This document shows positions 15,969 to 27,710 of a DNA stretch of 27,801 nucleotides, piece after piece. This DNA is from a virus. Lineage: Duplodnaviria > Heunggongvirae > Uroviricota > Caudoviricetes. The first letter of the stretch is position 1, and every line of letters begins with the position of its first letter. The position numbers and the translations under genes are program-made. Under the pieces are notes generated by a model. It saw only the letters and a list, made by a program, of their open reading frames with translations. It ran no database searches and was not told the DNA's origin. The stretch spans positions 1 to 27,801 of the IMG/VR virus record IMGVR_UViG_2802429218_000003; one strand, 5' to 3'.

Positions 15969-16433
15969 TTATCTGAGGCATTGCTCTCGAATGTATAGCT
16001 GTGCCCCTTCAAGTTGTTTTTGCATTATTATCAGTCGCTCTCTGAGGGTGAAATAATCCCGTTCAGCGGTGTCTGCCAGTCGGGGGGAGGCTGCATTATC
16101 CACGCCGGAGGCGGTGGTGGCTTCACGCACTGACTGACAGACTGCTTTGATGTGCAACCGACGACGACCAGCGGCAACATCATCACGCAGAGCATCATTT
16201 TCAGCTTTCGCATCAGCTAACTCCTTCGTGTGTTTTGCATCGAGCGCAGCAACATCACGCTGACGCATCTGCATGTCAGTAATTGCCACGTTCGCCAGCT
16301 TCAGTTCTCTGGCATTTTTGTCGCGCTGGGCTTTGTATGTAATGGCGTTATCACGGTAATGATTAACCGCCCATGACAGGCAGACGATGATGCAAATAAC
16401 CAGAGCGGAGATAATCGCGGTTACTCTGCTCAT
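15969..16433 (-). CDS. Rz: Spanin inner-membrane subunit Rz
   Basis: 154-aa ORF matching recalled lambda Rz ([48 protein letters not shown]...). Confidence 0.95.
16031..16213 (-). CDS. Rz1: Spanin outer-membrane lipoprotein Rz1 (embedded in Rz, +1 frame)
   Basis: 60-aa ORF with lipobox (LVVVGC) and proline-rich stretch, nested within Rz exactly as in lambda. Confidence 0.85.
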
Positions 16434-16906
16434 ACCTCAATCTCTCTGACCGTTCCGCCAGCTTCTTTGAATTTTGCAATCAGGCTGTCAGTCTTATGCT
16501 CGAACTGACCATAACCAGCGCCCGGCAGTGAAGCCCAGATATTGCTGCAACGGTCGATTGCCTGACGAATATCACCGCGGTCAATCATCGGTAAAGCGCC
16601 ACGCTCTTTAATCTGCTGCAATGCCACAGCGTCCTGACTTTTGGGAGAGAAGTCTTTCAGGCCAAGCTGCTTACGATAGGCATCCCACCAACGGGAAAGA
16701 AGCTGGTAACGTCCGGCTGCTGTTGATTTGAGTTTTGGGTTTAGCGTGACAAGTTTGCGAGGGTGATCGGAGTAATCAGTGAATAGCTCTCCGCCAACAA
16801 TGACGTCATAACCATGATTTCTGGTTTTCTGTCTTCCGTTATCAGTTCCCTCTGACCACGCCAGCATATCGAGGAACGCCTTACGTTGATTATTGATTTC
16901 CACCAT
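16430..16906 (-). CDS. R: Endolysin R (lytic transglycosylase)
   Basis: 158-aa ORF matching recalled lambda R ([42 protein letters not shown]...). Confidence 0.95.
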
Positions 16907-17213
16907 CTTCTACTCCGGCTTTTTTAGCAGCGAAGCGTTTGATAAGCGAACCAATCGAGTCAGTACCGATGTAGCCGATGAACACGCTCGTTATATAAGC
17001 GAGATTGCTACTTAGTCCGGCGAAGTCGAGAAGGTCACGAATGAACCAGGCGATAATGGCGCACATCGTTGCGTCGATTACTGTTTTTGTAAACGCACCG
17101 CCATTATATCTGCCGCGAAGGTACGCCATTGCAAACGCAAGGAATGCCCCGATGCCTTGTTCCTTTGCCGCGAGAATGGCGGCTAACAGGTCATGTTTTT
17201 CTGGCATCTTCAT
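16890..17213 (-). CDS. S: Holin/antiholin S (dual start MKM)
   Basis: 107-aa ORF matching recalled lambda S including the Met1-Lys2-Met3 dual-start motif. Confidence 0.95.
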
Positions 17214-19962: not shown

Positions 19963-20131
19963 CGTCTTCTTCCTCGTACATTGAGCTATTCGGATCGCTC
20001 ATCAGTTCTGCGCAGCAGTGCTCACACACATGAACTTCCAGCACATGCAGCTTCTGACTGCAGTTAGCGCACGTTAAAGCCCGCTCGACGCTTTCTTTCT
20101 GGTATTGAAGGGATTGGGATGGGCTAAGCAT
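19955..20131 (-). CDS. ninF: NinF
   Basis: Track ORF is 76 aa; Met at 20129-20131 gives 58 aa ([24 protein letters not shown]...) equal to lambda NinF; the start could also be Met at 20141-20143. Confidence 0.75.
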
Positions 20132-20531
20132 GGCTTTCACCATTAAAAAGTCGCTTGTAAGCATCAATGTCTCGTTTTGCTTCACCGAGCTTTCGTCTTA
20201 ATTCCATGTTTTCTGATTCAAGCTTTTCCATGTCTTGTTGGTATCGATCGCGGTGTTCTTTCCATGCTTTTCGATACGCCTTCATGTATGTCGTATTGGC
20301 CTTTCTCTTTGCCTGACGAACCGCATGGTGGTTTTTCACAAACCAGTCAGGGTCGTTAAATGCTGCTCTGGCGCATGTATACCAATAATTTGTTGCCTCC
20401 CTGTTTAGCCAATAAATACTGATAAATGGCAACCGGATAGACACCATTTTTCGTTGTGACTCTTTCTCGCCAAACATGTGTCCTTTTTTGATGCTAAGGC
20501 CAAATCCAGGTTGAATTAAAAGCATTGTCAT
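20124..20531 (-). CDS. Hypothetical protein (135 aa) inserted between ninE and ninF
   Basis: Track ORF is 147 aa; ATG at 20529-20531 overlaps the ninE stop (ATGA coupling) giving 135 aa; basic region and C-terminal heptad-like stretch; no recognisable lambda counterpart. Confidence 0.6.
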
Positions 20532-20704
20532 TTCCTCGCACGATGTCTTAGCCACCGGATATCCCACAGGTGAGCCGTGTAGTTGAAGGTTTTTACGTCA
20601 GATTCTTTTGGGATTGGCTTGCGTTTATTTCTGGAGCGTTTCGTTGGAAGGTATTTGCAGTTTTCACAGATTATGTCGGTGATGCTTCGTCGCTGTCGCC
20701 TCAT
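20528..20704 (-). CDS. ninE: NinE
   Basis: Met at 20702-20704 gives 58 aa ([30 protein letters not shown]...) matching recalled lambda NinE; start overlaps the stop of the methyltransferase gene. Confidence 0.8.
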
Positions 20705-21228
20705 GCCGCCCTCCTGACGCCCCGCCCGATCGCCATCAATGCCGCTTTGGATACGGTAGTAAACATCCGTCGAGGACTGATGAGCGGTCGCCAAATCAGC
20801 AGCATGGAGCCTTTGCTGTTTCCCTTCTTCTCCAGCCCTGTCGATGGTTCGATAAAATTAATCCGTCCATCAGTGATAATGCGAACTTCGTCGACACTCT
20901 CCAGAGCCTTGCTGAACCATCCGACTGACATATCCTCTGGCACAAGCATAACTACCGTCTGTCGCTGTTGTATGCACTGCTCAGCGGCTTTTTCCACCCA
21001 CGGCCTGATATTGCTGTACGGTGGGTTATTCCAGATTGCACCGTGGCTTATCCACTCAGAATTTAGCGCGTCGTCGGCCTCAGTTAGCCAGTGAGCGCAC
21101 AGAGCGTTTTTGTCGCTCGCAGCTGAATCCAGCCAGAATCCAAACTCAATATCCAGCGCATCAAAAAGCCAAAGCGGCGTTTGCCAGCAGTCCTTGTCGT
21201 GTGCTGGCGTATTTGATTTGATAGTCAT
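20701..21228 (-). CDS. Phage DNA N6-adenine methyltransferase (Dam-like)
   Basis: 175 aa from the Met at 21226-21228, which overlaps the ninB stop (ATGA); contains the NPPY catalytic motif of N6-adenine methyltransferases; sits where lambda has ninC/ninD. Confidence 0.85.
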
Positions 21229-21671
21229 GCAGCCTTCCCTTTTCGTTGTGACCATTCATACTCTCGCCGGGAGTCATCACTCCACCGCACGTTGCGCTCT
21301 GAGCCGAACCAGAACATGATTTCGATAAGCTCAGTCATGCTGGCCTTTCGCATTTTGCTGGTACGCACGCCAAGCATAACAACGCCACCGTCGATACCAG
21401 GCGCACTTCGTTGCTCCAGTTTTTTGGTCTTAAGCCACAGGGCAGTGAACAGGTCTTTCCAGTCCTCCGGCGCAAGTCTCTCTCCATGCCAAAGCACCTG
21501 ACGCGATACGTCCTGCAATAACGCCCACATAAGGCGGTTTTGAGGATTGCTCCGCTTTGGTTCTTTAATGTGGACTTCGTGAGGTGACTTGTCGTCGATC
21601 GGAAGTGAGAGTATTGCGTCTATGGCGTTGTTTCTGATTGCTTCGTTGCGAAGCATGTATATTTGCTTCAT
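21225..21671 (-). CDS. ninB: NinB recombination protein
   Basis: 148-aa ORF; matches recalled lambda NinB (146 aa) in sequence and position. Confidence 0.9.
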   Translation of the reverse strand: MKQIYMLRNEAIRNNAIDAILSLPIDDKSPHEVHIKEPKRSNPQNRLMWALLQDVSRQVLWHGERLAPEDWKDLFTALWLKTKKLEQRSAPGIDGGVVMLGVRTSKMRKASMTELIEIMFWFGSERNVRWSDDSRREYEWSQRKGKAA

Positions 21672-21678
21672 CGTTACC

Positions 21679-21885
21679 TCAACTCACAAAACGCCACGCC
21701 ACTTTTGCTACGACAACAGGCATAACACCGATAATCACCCACAGGAAAATGCTACCGAAAAGCACACCCACCAGGTCTTTACCTTCGCCTACCAACCGGA
21801 CAAAACTGCTGGCAACAACAATGAACGTCGCCACCATCCACATAGCACCGAGAATCCTCAATGCAGAGAAAATTAACTCAGCCAC
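21679..21885 (-). CDS. Small predicted membrane protein (68 aa, two hydrophobic helices), GTG start
   Basis: Track ORF; GTG at 21883-21885 preceded by GGGGGAGGG 8 nt upstream; the two hydrophobic segments are FIVVASSFVRLV and VLFGSIFLWVIIGVMPVVV; absent from lambda between ren and ninB. Confidence 0.55.
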   Translation of the reverse strand: MAELIFSALRILGAMWMVATFIVVASSFVRLVGEGKDLVGVLFGSIFLWVIIGVMPVVVAKVAWRFVS

Positions 21886-21900
21886 GATTTACCCTCCCCC

Positions 21901-21932
21901 AAATAAAAAGGCCTGCGATTACCAGCAGGCCT
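21901..21932 (-). terminator. tR2-like intrinsic terminator downstream of ren
   Basis: Minus-strand 8-bp perfect stem AGGCCTGC/GCAGGCCT with 8-nt loop followed by TTTTATTT. Confidence 0.6.
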
Positions 21933-21957
21933 GTTATTAGCTCAGTAATGTAGATGG

Positions 21958-22248
21958 TCATCTTTTAACTCCATATACCGCCAATACCCGTTTCATCGCG
22001 GCACTCTGGCGACACTCCTTAAAAATCAGGTTCGTGCTCATCTTTCCTTCCCGTTCTTCCCTGGTAGCAAACCGGTAATACACCGTTCGCCAGACCTTAC
22101 CTTCGATAACCAGAAGACCTGCCCGTGCCATTTTAGCCGCGGCCTGATTTATGCTGGTTACTGTTGCGCCTGTTAGCGCGGCAACGTCCGGCGCACAGAA
22201 GCTATTATGCGTCCCCAGGTAATGAATAATTGCCTCTTTGCCCGTCAT
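21958..22248 (-). CDS. ren: Ren (Rex exclusion-resistance protein)
   Basis: 96-aa ORF matching recalled lambda Ren. Confidence 0.9.
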   Translation of the reverse strand: MTGKEAIIHYLGTHNSFCAPDVAALTGATVTSINQAAAKMARAGLLVIEGKVWRTVYYRFATREEREGKMSTNLIFKECRQSAAMKRVLAVYGVKR

Positions 22249-22946
22249 ACACTTGCTCCTTTCAGTCCGAACTTAGCTTTAATTTCTGCGATCTTCGCCA
22301 GAGCCTGTGCACGATTTAGAGGTCTACCGCCCATAACAGGAAGTTGTTTTACTGGTTCAGGTATCGTCTCACCACGGTTAATTCGCGCTGTCATACAGGT
22401 CAGTTCATCGGCAGCCTTGCGCCGTAATTCCGCATCAGTAAGCGCATTGGCCCGCATGTTCTGATACAGGTTGGTAACCAGCCAGTAGTGCGCGTTTGAT
22501 TTCCACGGATAAGACTCCGCATCCGGATACAGGCCTCGCTTCCGGCAATACTCGTAAACCATATCAACCAGCTCGCTGACGTTTGGCAGTCCGGCGATAA
22601 CGGATGCTTCTTCCCGGCACCATGCAACAAACTGCCCGGGTGATGGCAGAAATGGTCGATTCTGCCGACGGGCTACGCGCATTCCTGCGTTAACCTGTTC
22701 CATTGTGGTGATCCCGTTTTCCCGGAAAGCCAGCACCCACTGGCGGCGGATTTCGTTCAGTTCGTTCTGGTCCCGGTTAGCCAGGCTCGCCGGGAAAGTT
22801 GCCAGTAACTGGCTGAACACACCATTGATGATCTGCGCTACCTGTTGTACCTGCGGCTTTTCGTCGTACTGTTCCGGCATGTTGTTGGCGATCCGACGCA
22901 TCTGCTCACGGTCAAAGTTAACCATCTGTGCGGCGATGTTTTTCAT
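22245..22946 (-). CDS. P: Replication protein P (DnaB helicase loader)
   Basis: 233-aa ORF matching recalled lambda P. Confidence 0.95.
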   Translation of the reverse strand: MKNIAAQMVNFDREQMRRIANNMPEQYDEKPQVQQVAQIINGVFSQLLATFPASLANRDQNELNEIRRQWVLAFRENGITTMEQVNAGMRVARRQNRPFLPSPGQFVAWCREEASVIAGLPNVSELVDMVYEYCRKRGLYPDAESYPWKSNAHYWLVTNLYQNMRANALTDAELRRKAADELTCMTARINRGETIPEPVKQLPVMGGRPLNRAQALAKIAEIKAKFGLKGASV

Positions 22947-23842
22947 AAATCCACCCCGTAAATCCAGTCAGTGTTTGTCAGGTCGAGTTTTGGTTTGCTG
23001 GCTGTCACGCCTGCCTGTTGCTTGTTACGGTTGATTTCGAGCTGGGTCCACTTGTCGCGGAGTTTGGCCGGACTCAGCACGTTACCGGACCAGAAGTTGT
23101 CCTGGCAGGCCCAGCGGAAAAGCACACACATATCGCGGTGGTTACGTCCGTCACGTTCACGCATCAGGCGGATATCGTTAGCCCACCCAGCAAAATTCGG
23201 TTTTCTGGCTGATGGCGCGATGGTCTTCACCATGTCAAACATCCACTCTGCGGCGGTCAGGTCTTCTGCTGTTCCCCACTTGCTGCCGCTCTGAATTGCA
23301 GCATCCGGTTTAACCACAGAAAGATCATTTTCTGGCTGGTCAGAGGATTCGCCAGAATTCTCTGACGAATAATCTTTTCTTTTTTCTTTTGTAATAGTGT
23401 CTTTTGTGTCCCCCTGTTTTGAGGGATAGCAATCCCCCAATTTGAGGGATGTTTTATCCCTCGTTTTAGGGGATTTTCCCTCGTTTTGAGGGATACACCA
23501 TTCTGAGATGTTTTTATTTGGTCCAAACATGCCGCCTTGCTGCTTGATAATATTCATTCTGACGAGTTCTAACTTGGCTTCATTGCACCGTTTGACAGGT
23601 AACTTTGTAATCTCGCTAAGTTGAGAATCGGTGATTCTGTCCATTGGTTTATTCCACCCATAGGTTTTACGCAGAATGGCAAGCAGCACTTTAAACTGTC
23701 GCTTGGTCAGATCTGCGCCCGAATAAGCCTCAAGCAGCATATTTGATAGTCTGGCGTAACCATCATCGAGATCTGCCACATTACGCTCCTGTCCGGCAAA
23801 GTTACCTCTGCCGAAGTTGAGTATTTTTGCTGTATTTGTCAT
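22943..23842 (-). CDS. O: Replication initiator protein O
   Basis: 299-aa ORF matching recalled lambda O; contains the ori iterons. Confidence 0.95.
   Translation of the reverse strand: MTNTAKILNFGRGNFAGQERNVADLDDGYARLSNMLLEAYSGADLTKRQFKVLLAILRKTYGWNKPMDRITDSQLSEITKLPVKRCNEAKLELVRMNIIKQQGGMFGPNKNISEWCIPQNEGKSPKTRDKTSLKLGDCYPSKQGDTKDTITKEKRKDYSSENSGESSDQPENDLSVVKPDAAIQSGSKWGTAEDLTAAEWMFDMVKTIAPSARKPNFAGWANDIRLMRERDGRNHRDMCVLFRWACQDNFWSGNVLSPAKLRDKWTQLEINRNKQQAGVTASKPKLDLTNTDWIYGVDL
23410..23495. repeat. ori: ori-lambda iterons: four ~19-bp repeats with TCCCTC...GAGGGA inverted symmetry, adjacent AT-rich stretch at 23375-23400
   Basis: Read directly: CCCCTGTTTTGAGGGATA / ATCCCCCAATTTGAGGGATG / ATCCCTCGTTTTAGGGGAT / TTCCCTCGTTTTGAGGGATA inside the O coding region. 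Confidence 0.8.
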
Positions 23843-25440: not shown

Positions 25441-26178
25441 TTGCAAAATAACTATCTACAGGTTATAGCCTATACTAGGCGCATGAATGATGGTATGACC
25501 AAGCCATTCCTTTGTACTTGCCAAGATGGGCTGGCTTACATAGTTAAAGGAAGGCCAAAACTTCGCCAAAAAGAGCTTGTAGCAGAATTTATTGCCGCCC
25601 ATCTAGCAAAACAGATAGGTCTGCCATGTCCTGATTTTTGCATTGTTGATGTTGATTGTGGGTTAATCGAGTTCATGCCTGACTTGCGTGGTGAGCTTTT
25701 GCCTGGACCTGCATTTGCTACCCGCTTTATTGAAAATGCATCAATCATAAATATTCAACAAGCAAGGAGTGCTGTAACCATTCAGGAACAAAAGAAAATA
25801 TTCTTCTTTGACCGCTGGATAAACAACGCAGACAGATCATTGACTGACATTGGTGGTAATGTAAACATAATTTACGATGCATTTAACAATAGGTATTACC
25901 TGATTGACCATAATCTGGCGTTCGCGCAGGATACAAGATCTCATGAGTATGATGTCCATGTGTATTCGCCGAATGGAAGACCGTGGGTTTTCGACATGCT
26001 CGACGAACCCGAACTGATGGATCTTGCAAATGATGCTATTAGTTCAGTAGAGGAGAAATTTAATCAGCTTCCGGATGAGTGGTTTTCAACCGATGAAGAA
26101 CGAAGGCTAATGCTGAATGAGATAATGAACTGCCTGAACAGAGTGCACGACAGAGAGTTTTGGAGTAACATCAAATGA
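25441..26178 (+). CDS. HipA-like kinase-domain protein (standalone C-terminal-domain type; start codon uncertain)
   Basis: 245-aa track ORF starting at TTG 25441 (AGGA 10-13 nt upstream); alternative ATG starts at 25483 and 25495. Segment ELVAEFIAAHLAKQIGLPCPDFCIV resembles recalled E. coli HipA (EYYCLLLAKELGLNVPDAEII); FFFDRWINNADRS aligns with the HipA catalytic loop VFQWLIGATDGHAKN but has Ser in place of His. Confidence 0.7.
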   Translation: MQNNYLQVIAYTRRMNDGMTKPFLCTCQDGLAYIVKGRPKLRQKELVAEFIAAHLAKQIGLPCPDFCIVDVDCGLIEFMPDLRGELLPGPAFATRFIENASIINIQQARSAVTIQEQKKIFFFDRWINNADRSLTDIGGNVNIIYDAFNNRYYLIDHNLAFAQDTRSHEYDVHVYSPNGRPWVFDMLDEPELMDLANDAISSVEEKFNQLPDEWFSTDEERRLMLNEIMNCLNRVHDREFWSNIK

Positions 26179-26993
26179 CCACACCATGCCTGTATAGCAT
26201 TATTAGATATGCTCCATATGCAGAAACCGAAGAGTTTGCTAATGTCGGTGTGGTTCTTTGTGCCCCGAAATTAGGTCAGTTTTGCTTTAAACTGACCCAA
26301 AGCAACAATGCCAGAGTAAAAAACTTTTTTCAGGATGAAATCATTTTCCCTCACGCGAGGGATGCAATTGCAAGAGAGCTAAAATTTGCTCAAGAGCAAA
26401 GTTATAAATTCAATTCTCCTGAAAAATTAGCAAATTTTTTCAACTACTTAATTGGCAGGAAAGAGTCAATCATTCATTTTAGCTCTGCAAGAGTTGCAAT
26501 GTCTGCTTGTCCACAAGACATGATGCACATACTTTTTAATAAGTTTGTACATCATTCAGAAATAACAAAAGAATCTCGTGAGACCATCCTGACGAGAGAG
26601 CTTAAGCATCGTTTCTCTCATTATAACGAACTCAGGAACGCCTTTAAAAAGGAAATGCTTGGTGGTGAACTAACGCGGTTTTCTGTACCATTTGTTGCCC
26701 GTCACGATGGAGAGATTTTATGTGCTATCAAACCCCTAACATTCACTCAGGACAAGCCTGAGAAAATGTTGGAGCACTGCGACTCTTGGACGGCCAAAAT
26801 TCTGCGCGCCGCCAGTGAAAAAATTTTATCTGTCTCAAATGTGTTATTTACGATAGATGCACCTCGCCAGCCAAGTGAGCTTGAGGTAAAAGCGATGAGT
26901 GAGATTCGTAAGACATTCGATGAGAAAGGTATAAATCACGTAGAGCATCAGGATGAAGCATCAATAGTAAAGTTTGCTAAGCAAGCAATTTAA
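26175..26993 (+). CDS. Hypothetical protein, partner of the HipA-like gene (possibly DUF3037-like)
   Basis: 272-aa ORF whose ATG (26175-26177) overlaps the upstream TGA (ATGA coupling); the N-terminal motif YSIIRYAPYAETEEFANVGVVL is tentatively recalled as characteristic of DUF3037; no catalytic motif recognised. Confidence 0.7.
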   Translation: MTTPCLYSIIRYAPYAETEEFANVGVVLCAPKLGQFCFKLTQSNNARVKNFFQDEIIFPHARDAIARELKFAQEQSYKFNSPEKLANFFNYLIGRKESIIHFSSARVAMSACPQDMMHILFNKFVHHSEITKESRETILTRELKHRFSHYNELRNAFKKEMLGGELTRFSVPFVARHDGEILCAIKPLTFTQDKPEKMLEHCDSWTAKILRAASEKILSVSNVLFTIDAPRQPSELEVKAMSEIRKTFDEKGINHVEHQDEASIVKFAKQAI

Positions 26994-27339: not shown

Positions 27340-27437
27340 GATCACCCAACCACATGAGCTGTGGGATGCAATGCCGAAGCAACCGTCTCAGGAGGAGCTT
27401 CGAGATTGCATCACCAAAGTTTATTCGGGAGGAATCT

Positions 27438-27710
27438 ATGTCCAGAAAAACAGAATTTAAAGGCACCGCAGCTTCTCGCCGTAGAGCTCGTCGCGCAAAC
27501 CTGCAAAGTCAGGAGGCGATTAGCTCCGACAAGCTACACAGGCCAACCACCTCACGAGTGGTCTTGCAATGCAAGCGCAAACCAGCAATGAGAGCAGAAG
27601 TTATAACTCTGACAACGTTGATCAGAAAATATGAAGGTTCAACTTGTCTTCCAAACGTAGCTCTTTACGCGGCAGGCTACCGGAAATCAAAACAACTGAC
27701 GGCGAGATGA
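27438..27710 (+). CDS. N: N-type transcription antiterminator (arginine-rich motif; P22 gp24-like C-terminus)
   Basis: Track ORF 27354-27710; ATG at 27438 has a GGGAGG Shine-Dalgarno and gives 90 aa; N-terminal ARM TAASRRRARRANLQ; C-terminus LPNVALYAAGYRKSKQLTAR matches the recalled P22 N C-terminus. Confidence 0.8.
   Translation: MSRKTEFKGTAASRRRARRANLQSQEAISSDKLHRPTTSRVVLQCKRKPAMRAEVITLTTLIRKYEGSTCLPNVALYAAGYRKSKQLTAR

Follow-up and report, generated by a model that had tools for sequence, protein, structure and literature searches.

A 68-codon gene for a predicted two-helix membrane protein lies directly behind the terminator tR2 in a lambdoid phage

We analyzed a 27,801-nucleotide stretch of DNA from a virus of the Caudoviricetes (positions 1 to 27,801 of IMG/VR record IMGVR_UViG_2802429218_000003), referred to here in its full length as the window. 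A 68-codon ORF between the terminator tR2 and ninB is a genuine accessory gene of the lambdoid phages of Enterobacterales and belongs to the family phrog_1165. Judged by analogy with lambda, it is most likely a delayed-early lytic gene that stays silent in the repressed prophage, and its product is predicted to form a helical hairpin in the membrane. With low confidence, we prefer a role as a non-lytic modulator of membrane function in lytic growth over a role as a pore-forming toxin. The explanation taken as a whole, which combines a phrog_1165 gene, delayed-early expression gated by tR2 and N, a membrane hairpin, and a modulator that packs against a partner, is in our judgment probable, with ample room for error.

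Besides structural genes, the window has cI, cro, cII, O, P, ren, nin genes, Q, S, R, and Rz. Its early-right operon runs on the minus strand in the order O, P, ren, a 27-codon ORF, the 68-codon GTG ORF, and ninB, with the following features.

23842..22943, minus strand: O
22946..22245, minus strand: P
21958..22248, minus strand: ren, the last gene before tR2 (96-aa ORF; phrog_142 Ren-like exclusion protein, E=5e-42)
21878..21961, minus strand: ninA, a 27-codon ORF (MTIYITELITGLLVIAGLFIWGRVNRG) spanning the tR2 hairpin (phrog_5907, E=1.3e-18)
21901..21932, minus strand: tR2 intrinsic terminator (terminator scan, RNA fold, and identity to lambda tR2)
21932..21909, minus strand: tR2 stem-loop, with stem AGGCCTGC/GCAGGCCT of 8 bp (6 G-C) and a loop of 8
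21908..21901, minus strand: tR2 T-tract TTTTATTT, directly after the stem-loop
21900..21892, minus strand: Shine-Dalgarno GGGGGAGGG (sequence and lambda alignment), its GGAGG core 7 nt upstream of the GTG
21679..21885, minus strand: the 68-codon gene, with a GTG start (phrog_1165; predicted two-helix membrane hairpin)
21225..21671, minus strand: ninB (PF05772 NinB, E=1.5e-48), starting 7 nt after the 68-codon ORF

The product of the 68-codon ORF has 68 residues (MAELIFSALRILGAMWMVATFIVVASSFVRLVGEGKDLVGVLFGSIFLWVIIGVMPVVVAKVAWRFVS). The gene preceding tR2 is named “protein ren” by RefSeq in the ETEC4085 prophage, which is 100% identical. In the minimum-free-energy RNA fold of this region, the tR2 hairpin forms the core, and the HK620 annotation names the terminator as tR2. 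At the other end of the gene, the GAGG Shine-Dalgarno of ninB overlaps the TGA stop of the 68-codon ORF (TGAGGTAACGATG).

Alignment with lambda shows the same bases through tR2 and the motif GGGGGAG, with divergence thereafter. Lambda continues with AGGGAAGTC into the ATG of ninB, and the window with GGTAAATC into the GTG of the 68-codon ORF, so that the Shine-Dalgarno of the ORF is the element that serves ninB in lambda. The gap between ren and ninB measures 286 bp in the window versus 73 bp in lambda (40571-40643). The earlier note had put these distances at about 290 and 70 bp and proposed that the window has an extra gene between tR2 and ninB; both hold, the second by the lambda alignment. 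The same is true of the tR2-like terminator it placed at 21901-21932, whose stem-loop and T-tract are identical to lambda tR2, and of its GTG-initiated 68-codon ORF with a strong Shine-Dalgarno (21885..21679).

The tR2 hairpin is itself crossed by ninA, whose ATG overlaps the ren stop as ATGA and whose TGA is found 5 nt beyond the GTG of the 68-codon ORF. The ORF over tR2 is annotated as ninA or NinA protein in HK620 and HK630. A tblastn search attached this label to the 68-codon gene in the same two phages, an identity that we rejected because the label belongs to the separate 27-codon ORF (21961..21878). The 68-codon gene is unannotated in HK620 and is annotated as a truncated 52-aa version in HK630. 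Like it, ninA (26-27 codons in lambda, P22, and HK620) is short and hydrophobic and sits within the tightly interlinked ren/ninA/ninB chain; unlike it, ninA belongs to phrog_5907 and is a separate ORF that lies upstream. An ATGA or TGATG junction at ninA is kept behind five different upstream genes, three of four ninA substitutions are synonymous, and the ninA frame in lambda would end in an ATGA overlap with ninB. Reporter work has shown that ribosomes near tR2 repress termination there (PMC4824070), and therefore translation of ninA could tune tR2 and couple to the downstream gene. In HK022 (L008, about 1445-1450), the 5' part of ninA is missing and the stop of HK022_57 falls 1-2 nt before the tR2 stem, so that a ribosome terminating at this stop would be expected to cover the hairpin. 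An Rfam search of the ninA/tR2 region gave Trp_leader at a sub-threshold 19.7 bits, against a gathering score of 41.

Dozens of spurious ORFs longer than 60 aa occur in the window, and for this reason the length of the 68-codon ORF is by itself no evidence for a gene. A homology search, suggested in the earlier note, gave a full-length match to the phrog_1165 HMM (E=6.5e-36), with residues 1-68 aligned to profile positions 1-68 of 68. All 20 diverse relatives that we compared match phrog_1165 and no other PHROG family. Homologues were found by tblastn in about 107 phage records, including Stx2a and Stx1a phages, HK022, HK75, HK630, HK620, mEpX1, mEp213, mEp235, Kapi1, and P22-like Salmonella phages. 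By blastn, the gene is present in 539 of 5426 complete E. coli genomes, annotated as “hypothetical protein” every time, and the exact window protein occurs on 802 contigs. An HMM profile search of 1.84 billion representative proteins returned only 27 matches. The distant relatives among them are 60-66 aa long and 25-35% identical, also belong to phrog_1165, and keep K10, W16, G35, D37-P38, W49, G53, P56, K61, and W64. One phrog_1165 relative lies in an apparent prophage in the genome of Erwinia endophytica.

The gene exists as two alleles, the window type and the HK620/Salmonella type, which are 41-60% identical. Each is exactly 68 codons long, with no indels; E. coli copies start with GTG, and Salmonella copies have ATG at that position. 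Substitutions between the alleles number 22, 16, and 30 at codon positions 1, 2, and 3, with a dN/dS of ~0.3, and the 68-codon frame is the sole frame open in all eight intact alleles tested. We rejected an internal ATG start at codon 15, as annotated in HK630, since that ATG is missing in the other allele; it is also disfavored by the conservation of residues 6-14 in distant relatives. Two copies, each at about 1500-1815 of its locus, are disrupted. One (L010, Stx1a_11KH263) has a TGA at codon 15, and the other (L011, Salmonella phage 146851_sal5) has a 1-nt deletion near the 3' end that leads to an annotated 104-aa fusion ORF. Therefore, the 68-codon gene is dispensable.

Divergence between the alleles is unevenly spread. 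The middle of the gene is ~50% diverged, while the last 63 nt of the ORF (21679..21741, minus strand) and the region of tR2, the Shine-Dalgarno, and the start are near-identical. Some E. coli genomes match only query bases 145-207 by blastn, and in a natural chimera, P0147, TM1 comes from one allele and TM2 from the other. The conserved ends, the partial matches, and the chimera together indicate that mosaic junctions fall inside the gene, and we count P0147 as a sign that the two helices may be interchangeable.

We then compared the position of the gene among its relatives. It is the first gene after the replication module in 10 of 10 close copies and in five distant loci (L012-L015 and L017), and the last replication gene ahead of it is lambda P, a DnaC-like gene, or a DnaB-like gene. 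All ten close copies have it directly behind tR2, irrespective of the genes on either side: upstream of tR2 lie ren, a ren-like gene, Stx2-86 orf69, a DnaB-type helicase, or HK022 gene 57, and downstream of the gene lie ninB or other small genes. In the five distant loci no terminator precedes the gene, which either adjoins the final replication gene or shares bases with it (ATGA or GTGA). Only the Escherichia/Salmonella branch therefore shows the link to tR2, and since the distant loci keep the position and not the terminator, the conserved feature is the slot itself, that of the first gene after the replication module. A NinB-like ORF, recognized by sequence resemblance only, is found further downstream in L014, L015, and L017.

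Two further observations concern these neighborhoods. Stx2-converting phage 86 (L003, about 2290-2320) retains only the first ~14 nt of ninB (ATGAAGCAAATATC...), followed by unrelated sequence, and the mobile unit therefore appears to consist of tR2, the gene, and the start of ninB. The distant loci L013 (4631..4783) and L017 (4385..4666) have further small hydrophobic ORFs, a few genes downstream from the phrog_1165 homologue; nin regions seem to collect several tiny membrane proteins.

Expression of the gene can be predicted from its place in the operon. A scan of 21000-22600 on both strands found no sigma-70-like promoter site; as the scan used the sigma-70 consensus only, a weak or activator-dependent promoter is possible. 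Lambda pR transcription halts completely at tR2 when N is missing (PMC7084815). An N-like antiterminator is encoded in the window:

27354..27710, plus strand: N-like antiterminator gene (phrog_271 anti-termination protein N-like, E=4e-24)

By analogy, this protein is expected to carry pR transcription through tR2 in the window phage. Given transcription from pR and a position right behind tR2, the product would be expected only when N-modified RNA polymerase reads through, a timing that follows from lambda biology. Translation would start from the strong Shine-Dalgarno described above, and coupling to translation of the tiny ninA ORF across the terminator may contribute as well. The earlier note had treated the gene as one of a prophage. 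Its position stands, but this framing is doubtful, as a gene behind tR2 in the pR operon is predicted to be expressed only lytically and in dependence on N antitermination.

Next, we considered the protein itself, which the earlier note had described as a very hydrophobic peptide of two segments. Kyte-Doolittle means over 19 residues peak at 2.15 (residues 11-29) and at about 2.6 (residues 41-59; maximum 2.62), with the loop RLVGEGKDL between the two hydrophobic segments. From an alignment of 14 sequences, AlphaFold predicts a helical hairpin (mean pLDDT 89.9) whose helices span residues 2-33 and 38-67. The description in the note fits, and the predicted parts are as follows:

21799..21855, minus strand: predicted transmembrane helix 1, codons 11-29 (Kyte-Doolittle 2.15; within AlphaFold helix 2-33)
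21772..21798, minus strand: loop RLVGEGKDL, codons 30-38 (conserved V32, G35, D37, and (P38); AlphaFold helix break 34-37)
21706..21771, minus strand: predicted transmembrane helix 2, codons 39-60 (Kyte-Doolittle up to 2.62; most conserved W49, G53, and P56)

By the positive-inside rule, the termini (R/K10, K61, and R65) are probably cytoplasmic and the turn of 8-9 residues periplasmic. The C-terminal tail, KVAWRFVS, has eight residues with two basic charges. Conservation is strongest on the TM2 side (W49, G53, P56, V57, K61, and W64) and in the turn (V32, G35, and D37). Helical periodicity of this conservation is only suggestive for TM2, where 5.7% of shuffles attain a moment as high as the observed one, and for TM1 (14%) there is none. 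A signal-peptide reading of the window allele (V23-x-A25|S26) was rejected, as the other allele (IVLHS) does not conserve the site. Foldseek searches with the AlphaFold hairpin against PDB and BFVD gave no match at E<1, and a profile search against PDB sequences gave a chance match only (E=0.64). Structure searching is uninformative here because a two-helix hairpin is too generic for it.

Phrog_1165 is already cataloged, in the unknown-function category of PHROGs v4. Its members include WP_000818842.1, mEpX1 gp49 (YP_007111686), Stx2-converting phage 86 orf70 (BAF34102), and HK022_58 (AUM59826). These entries have the same length and occupy the same genomic slot, and the window protein is 100% identical to database entries; across hundreds of genomes it is entered as a hypothetical protein. 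We found no functional study of any phrog_1165 member (transcription, translation, localization, or phenotype) in the searchable literature, and the 68-aa protein has no match at E<=1 in Pfam (including all holin families), NCBIfam, or PADLOC.

In the reading that we prefer, the product would insert into the inner membrane as a helical hairpin with almost nothing outside the bilayer. With so few residues outside, it would most likely act within the membrane, packing against another membrane protein of host or phage, or against itself. The conserved contact elements would be W49, G53, P56, A60, and W64 of TM2, the turn V-x-x-G-x-D-P, and the tail K61-x-x-W64. Such a modulator may, for example, block the entry of superinfecting DNA or neutralize a host response that acts on the membrane. 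We infer this partner-binding mechanism with low confidence, and the conserved face may be no more than the surface along which the two helices of the hairpin meet.

The earlier note had raised the possibility of a toxin, a holin-like modulator, or an exclusion factor, none of which is supported by a family match at E<=1, by the layout of a phage that has its own lysis cassette, or by a promoter or antisense arrangement. As a pore-forming or depolarizing small toxin, or as a holin- or antiholin-like modulator of lysis timing, the protein would oligomerize in the inner membrane and dissipate the proton-motive force. We regard this as unlikely. Class II holins and pinholins, of which phage 21 S68 is an example, do resemble it in having ~68 residues, two TM helices (two within ~65-95 aa, as hydropathy and AlphaFold also give here), and probably N-in and C-in termini, and the gene is expected to belong to the lytic programme. 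They differ in sequence, in their location in the lysis cassette, in their charged C-terminal tail, and in their late expression. The window phage has a complete lysis cassette of its own (15969..17213), ~4.5 kb away from the 68-codon gene, which sits in the early nin region:

16890..17213: S holin (PF05106), a class I holin separate from the 68-codon gene
16430..16906: endolysin (R)
15969..16433: Rz

Against a holin also speak the tail KVAWRFVS in place of a highly charged hydrophilic C-terminal domain, the lack of a dual-start motif, and the lack of any holin or toxin family in Pfam even at E<=1, or any family in NCBIfam. Very few polar residues lie inside the helices, and a lethal pore made delayed-early, along with the products of the recombination and nin genes, would come too soon. 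The motif G40-x3-G44 and other small TM2 residues of the window allele could support helix-helix oligomerization, but neither the other allele nor distant relatives conserve G40-x3-G44. The type I toxins (Hok/Gef, TisB, Ldr, and Ibs) are likewise small hydrophobic membrane peptides and are sometimes prophage-borne. However, they have one helix, a promoter of their own, and an antisense RNA, and the 68-codon gene shows none of these: it encodes two helices, has no promoter-like site on the opposite strand, and has no Rfam match in the ORF.

Somewhat less likely still is a lysogen-expressed moron for superinfection exclusion or defense, like HK97 gp15 or T4 Imm, by which the prophage would protect its host. 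Among temperate phages, small inner-membrane proteins that have been characterized often turn out to be exclusion factors, and the gene occurs widely in prophages, with copies in 10% of complete E. coli genomes. T4 Imm and HK97 gp15 are comparable as tiny phage proteins that are buried almost entirely in the membrane and plausibly have a host membrane complex as their target, and no homology of the 68-aa protein to either was detected. HK97 gp15 is a lysogen-expressed moron with its own promoter, and T4 Imm is an immediate-early gene of a virulent phage. The 68-codon gene, in contrast, has no promoter of its own and sits behind tR2. Just 15 nt separate the T-tract from the GTG, taken up entirely by the Shine-Dalgarno and spacer, and no promoter-like site occurs there or anywhere in 21000-22600. 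The upstream hairpin is the operon's tR2, and downstream the gene has no terminator of its own before ninB begins 7 nt on. Its GC of 0.488 is like that of its neighbors (0.512 for both ren and ninB), with no compositional anomaly, and no defense or exclusion family of PADLOC-DB matches at E<=1. The overlap with the preceding replication gene in distant relatives places the gene in the repressed early operon.

Finally, it is very improbable that the ORF encodes no functional protein and is either a side effect of a conserved element in the DNA or RNA (additional signals for termination or antitermination) or a decaying remnant: the near-identical DNA of its first bases and last 63 nt, a weak terminator-like hairpin at 21836..21810, and the two disrupted copies would fit, but frame, length, and hydrophobic pattern are kept at 25-35% protein identity where the DNA has diverged past recognition, dN/dS is ~0.3, Rfam has no family inside the ORF, and the internal hairpin, which we rejected as a signal, is missing in the other allele.

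Two other loci of the window drew our attention. A 245-aa ORF (25441..26178, plus strand; phrog_3162) and a 272-aa ORF (26175..26993, plus strand; phrog_5137) form an overlapping pair between cI and the N-like gene. Lambda rexA and rexB occupy the slot between cI and N, and the pair is a candidate for lysogen-expressed exclusion or defense. Between ninE and ninG, a 147-aa ORF (20124..20567, minus strand) has no Pfam match and matches unknown-function PHROGs only (phrog_1511).

For the lambdoid phages, the 68-codon gene is an ordinary member of the nin region, where small uncharacterized genes are the norm, and our understanding of these phages is unchanged by it. A bolder reading, which we hold to be improbable, is that phrog_1165 represents a new class of effector, almost wholly intramembrane and co-expressed with the replication genes, that would dock on a host inner-membrane complex through the conserved TM2 face and the periplasmic turn and so protect lytic development. 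It might, for example, close the DNA-entry route to superinfecting phages or disarm a membrane-acting abortive-infection channel. Ren is the anti-Rex gene, and if this reading were true, the adjacency to ren in lambda-type phages would be meaningful and not coincidental. About one in ten complete E. coli genomes have the gene, as do many Stx2a-converting phages, HK022, HK620, mEpX1, and P22-like Salmonella phages; the Stx phages among these are clinically relevant. With its fixed slot after the replication genes and its expected control by tR2 and N, it is a tractable subject for the study of small membrane proteins.
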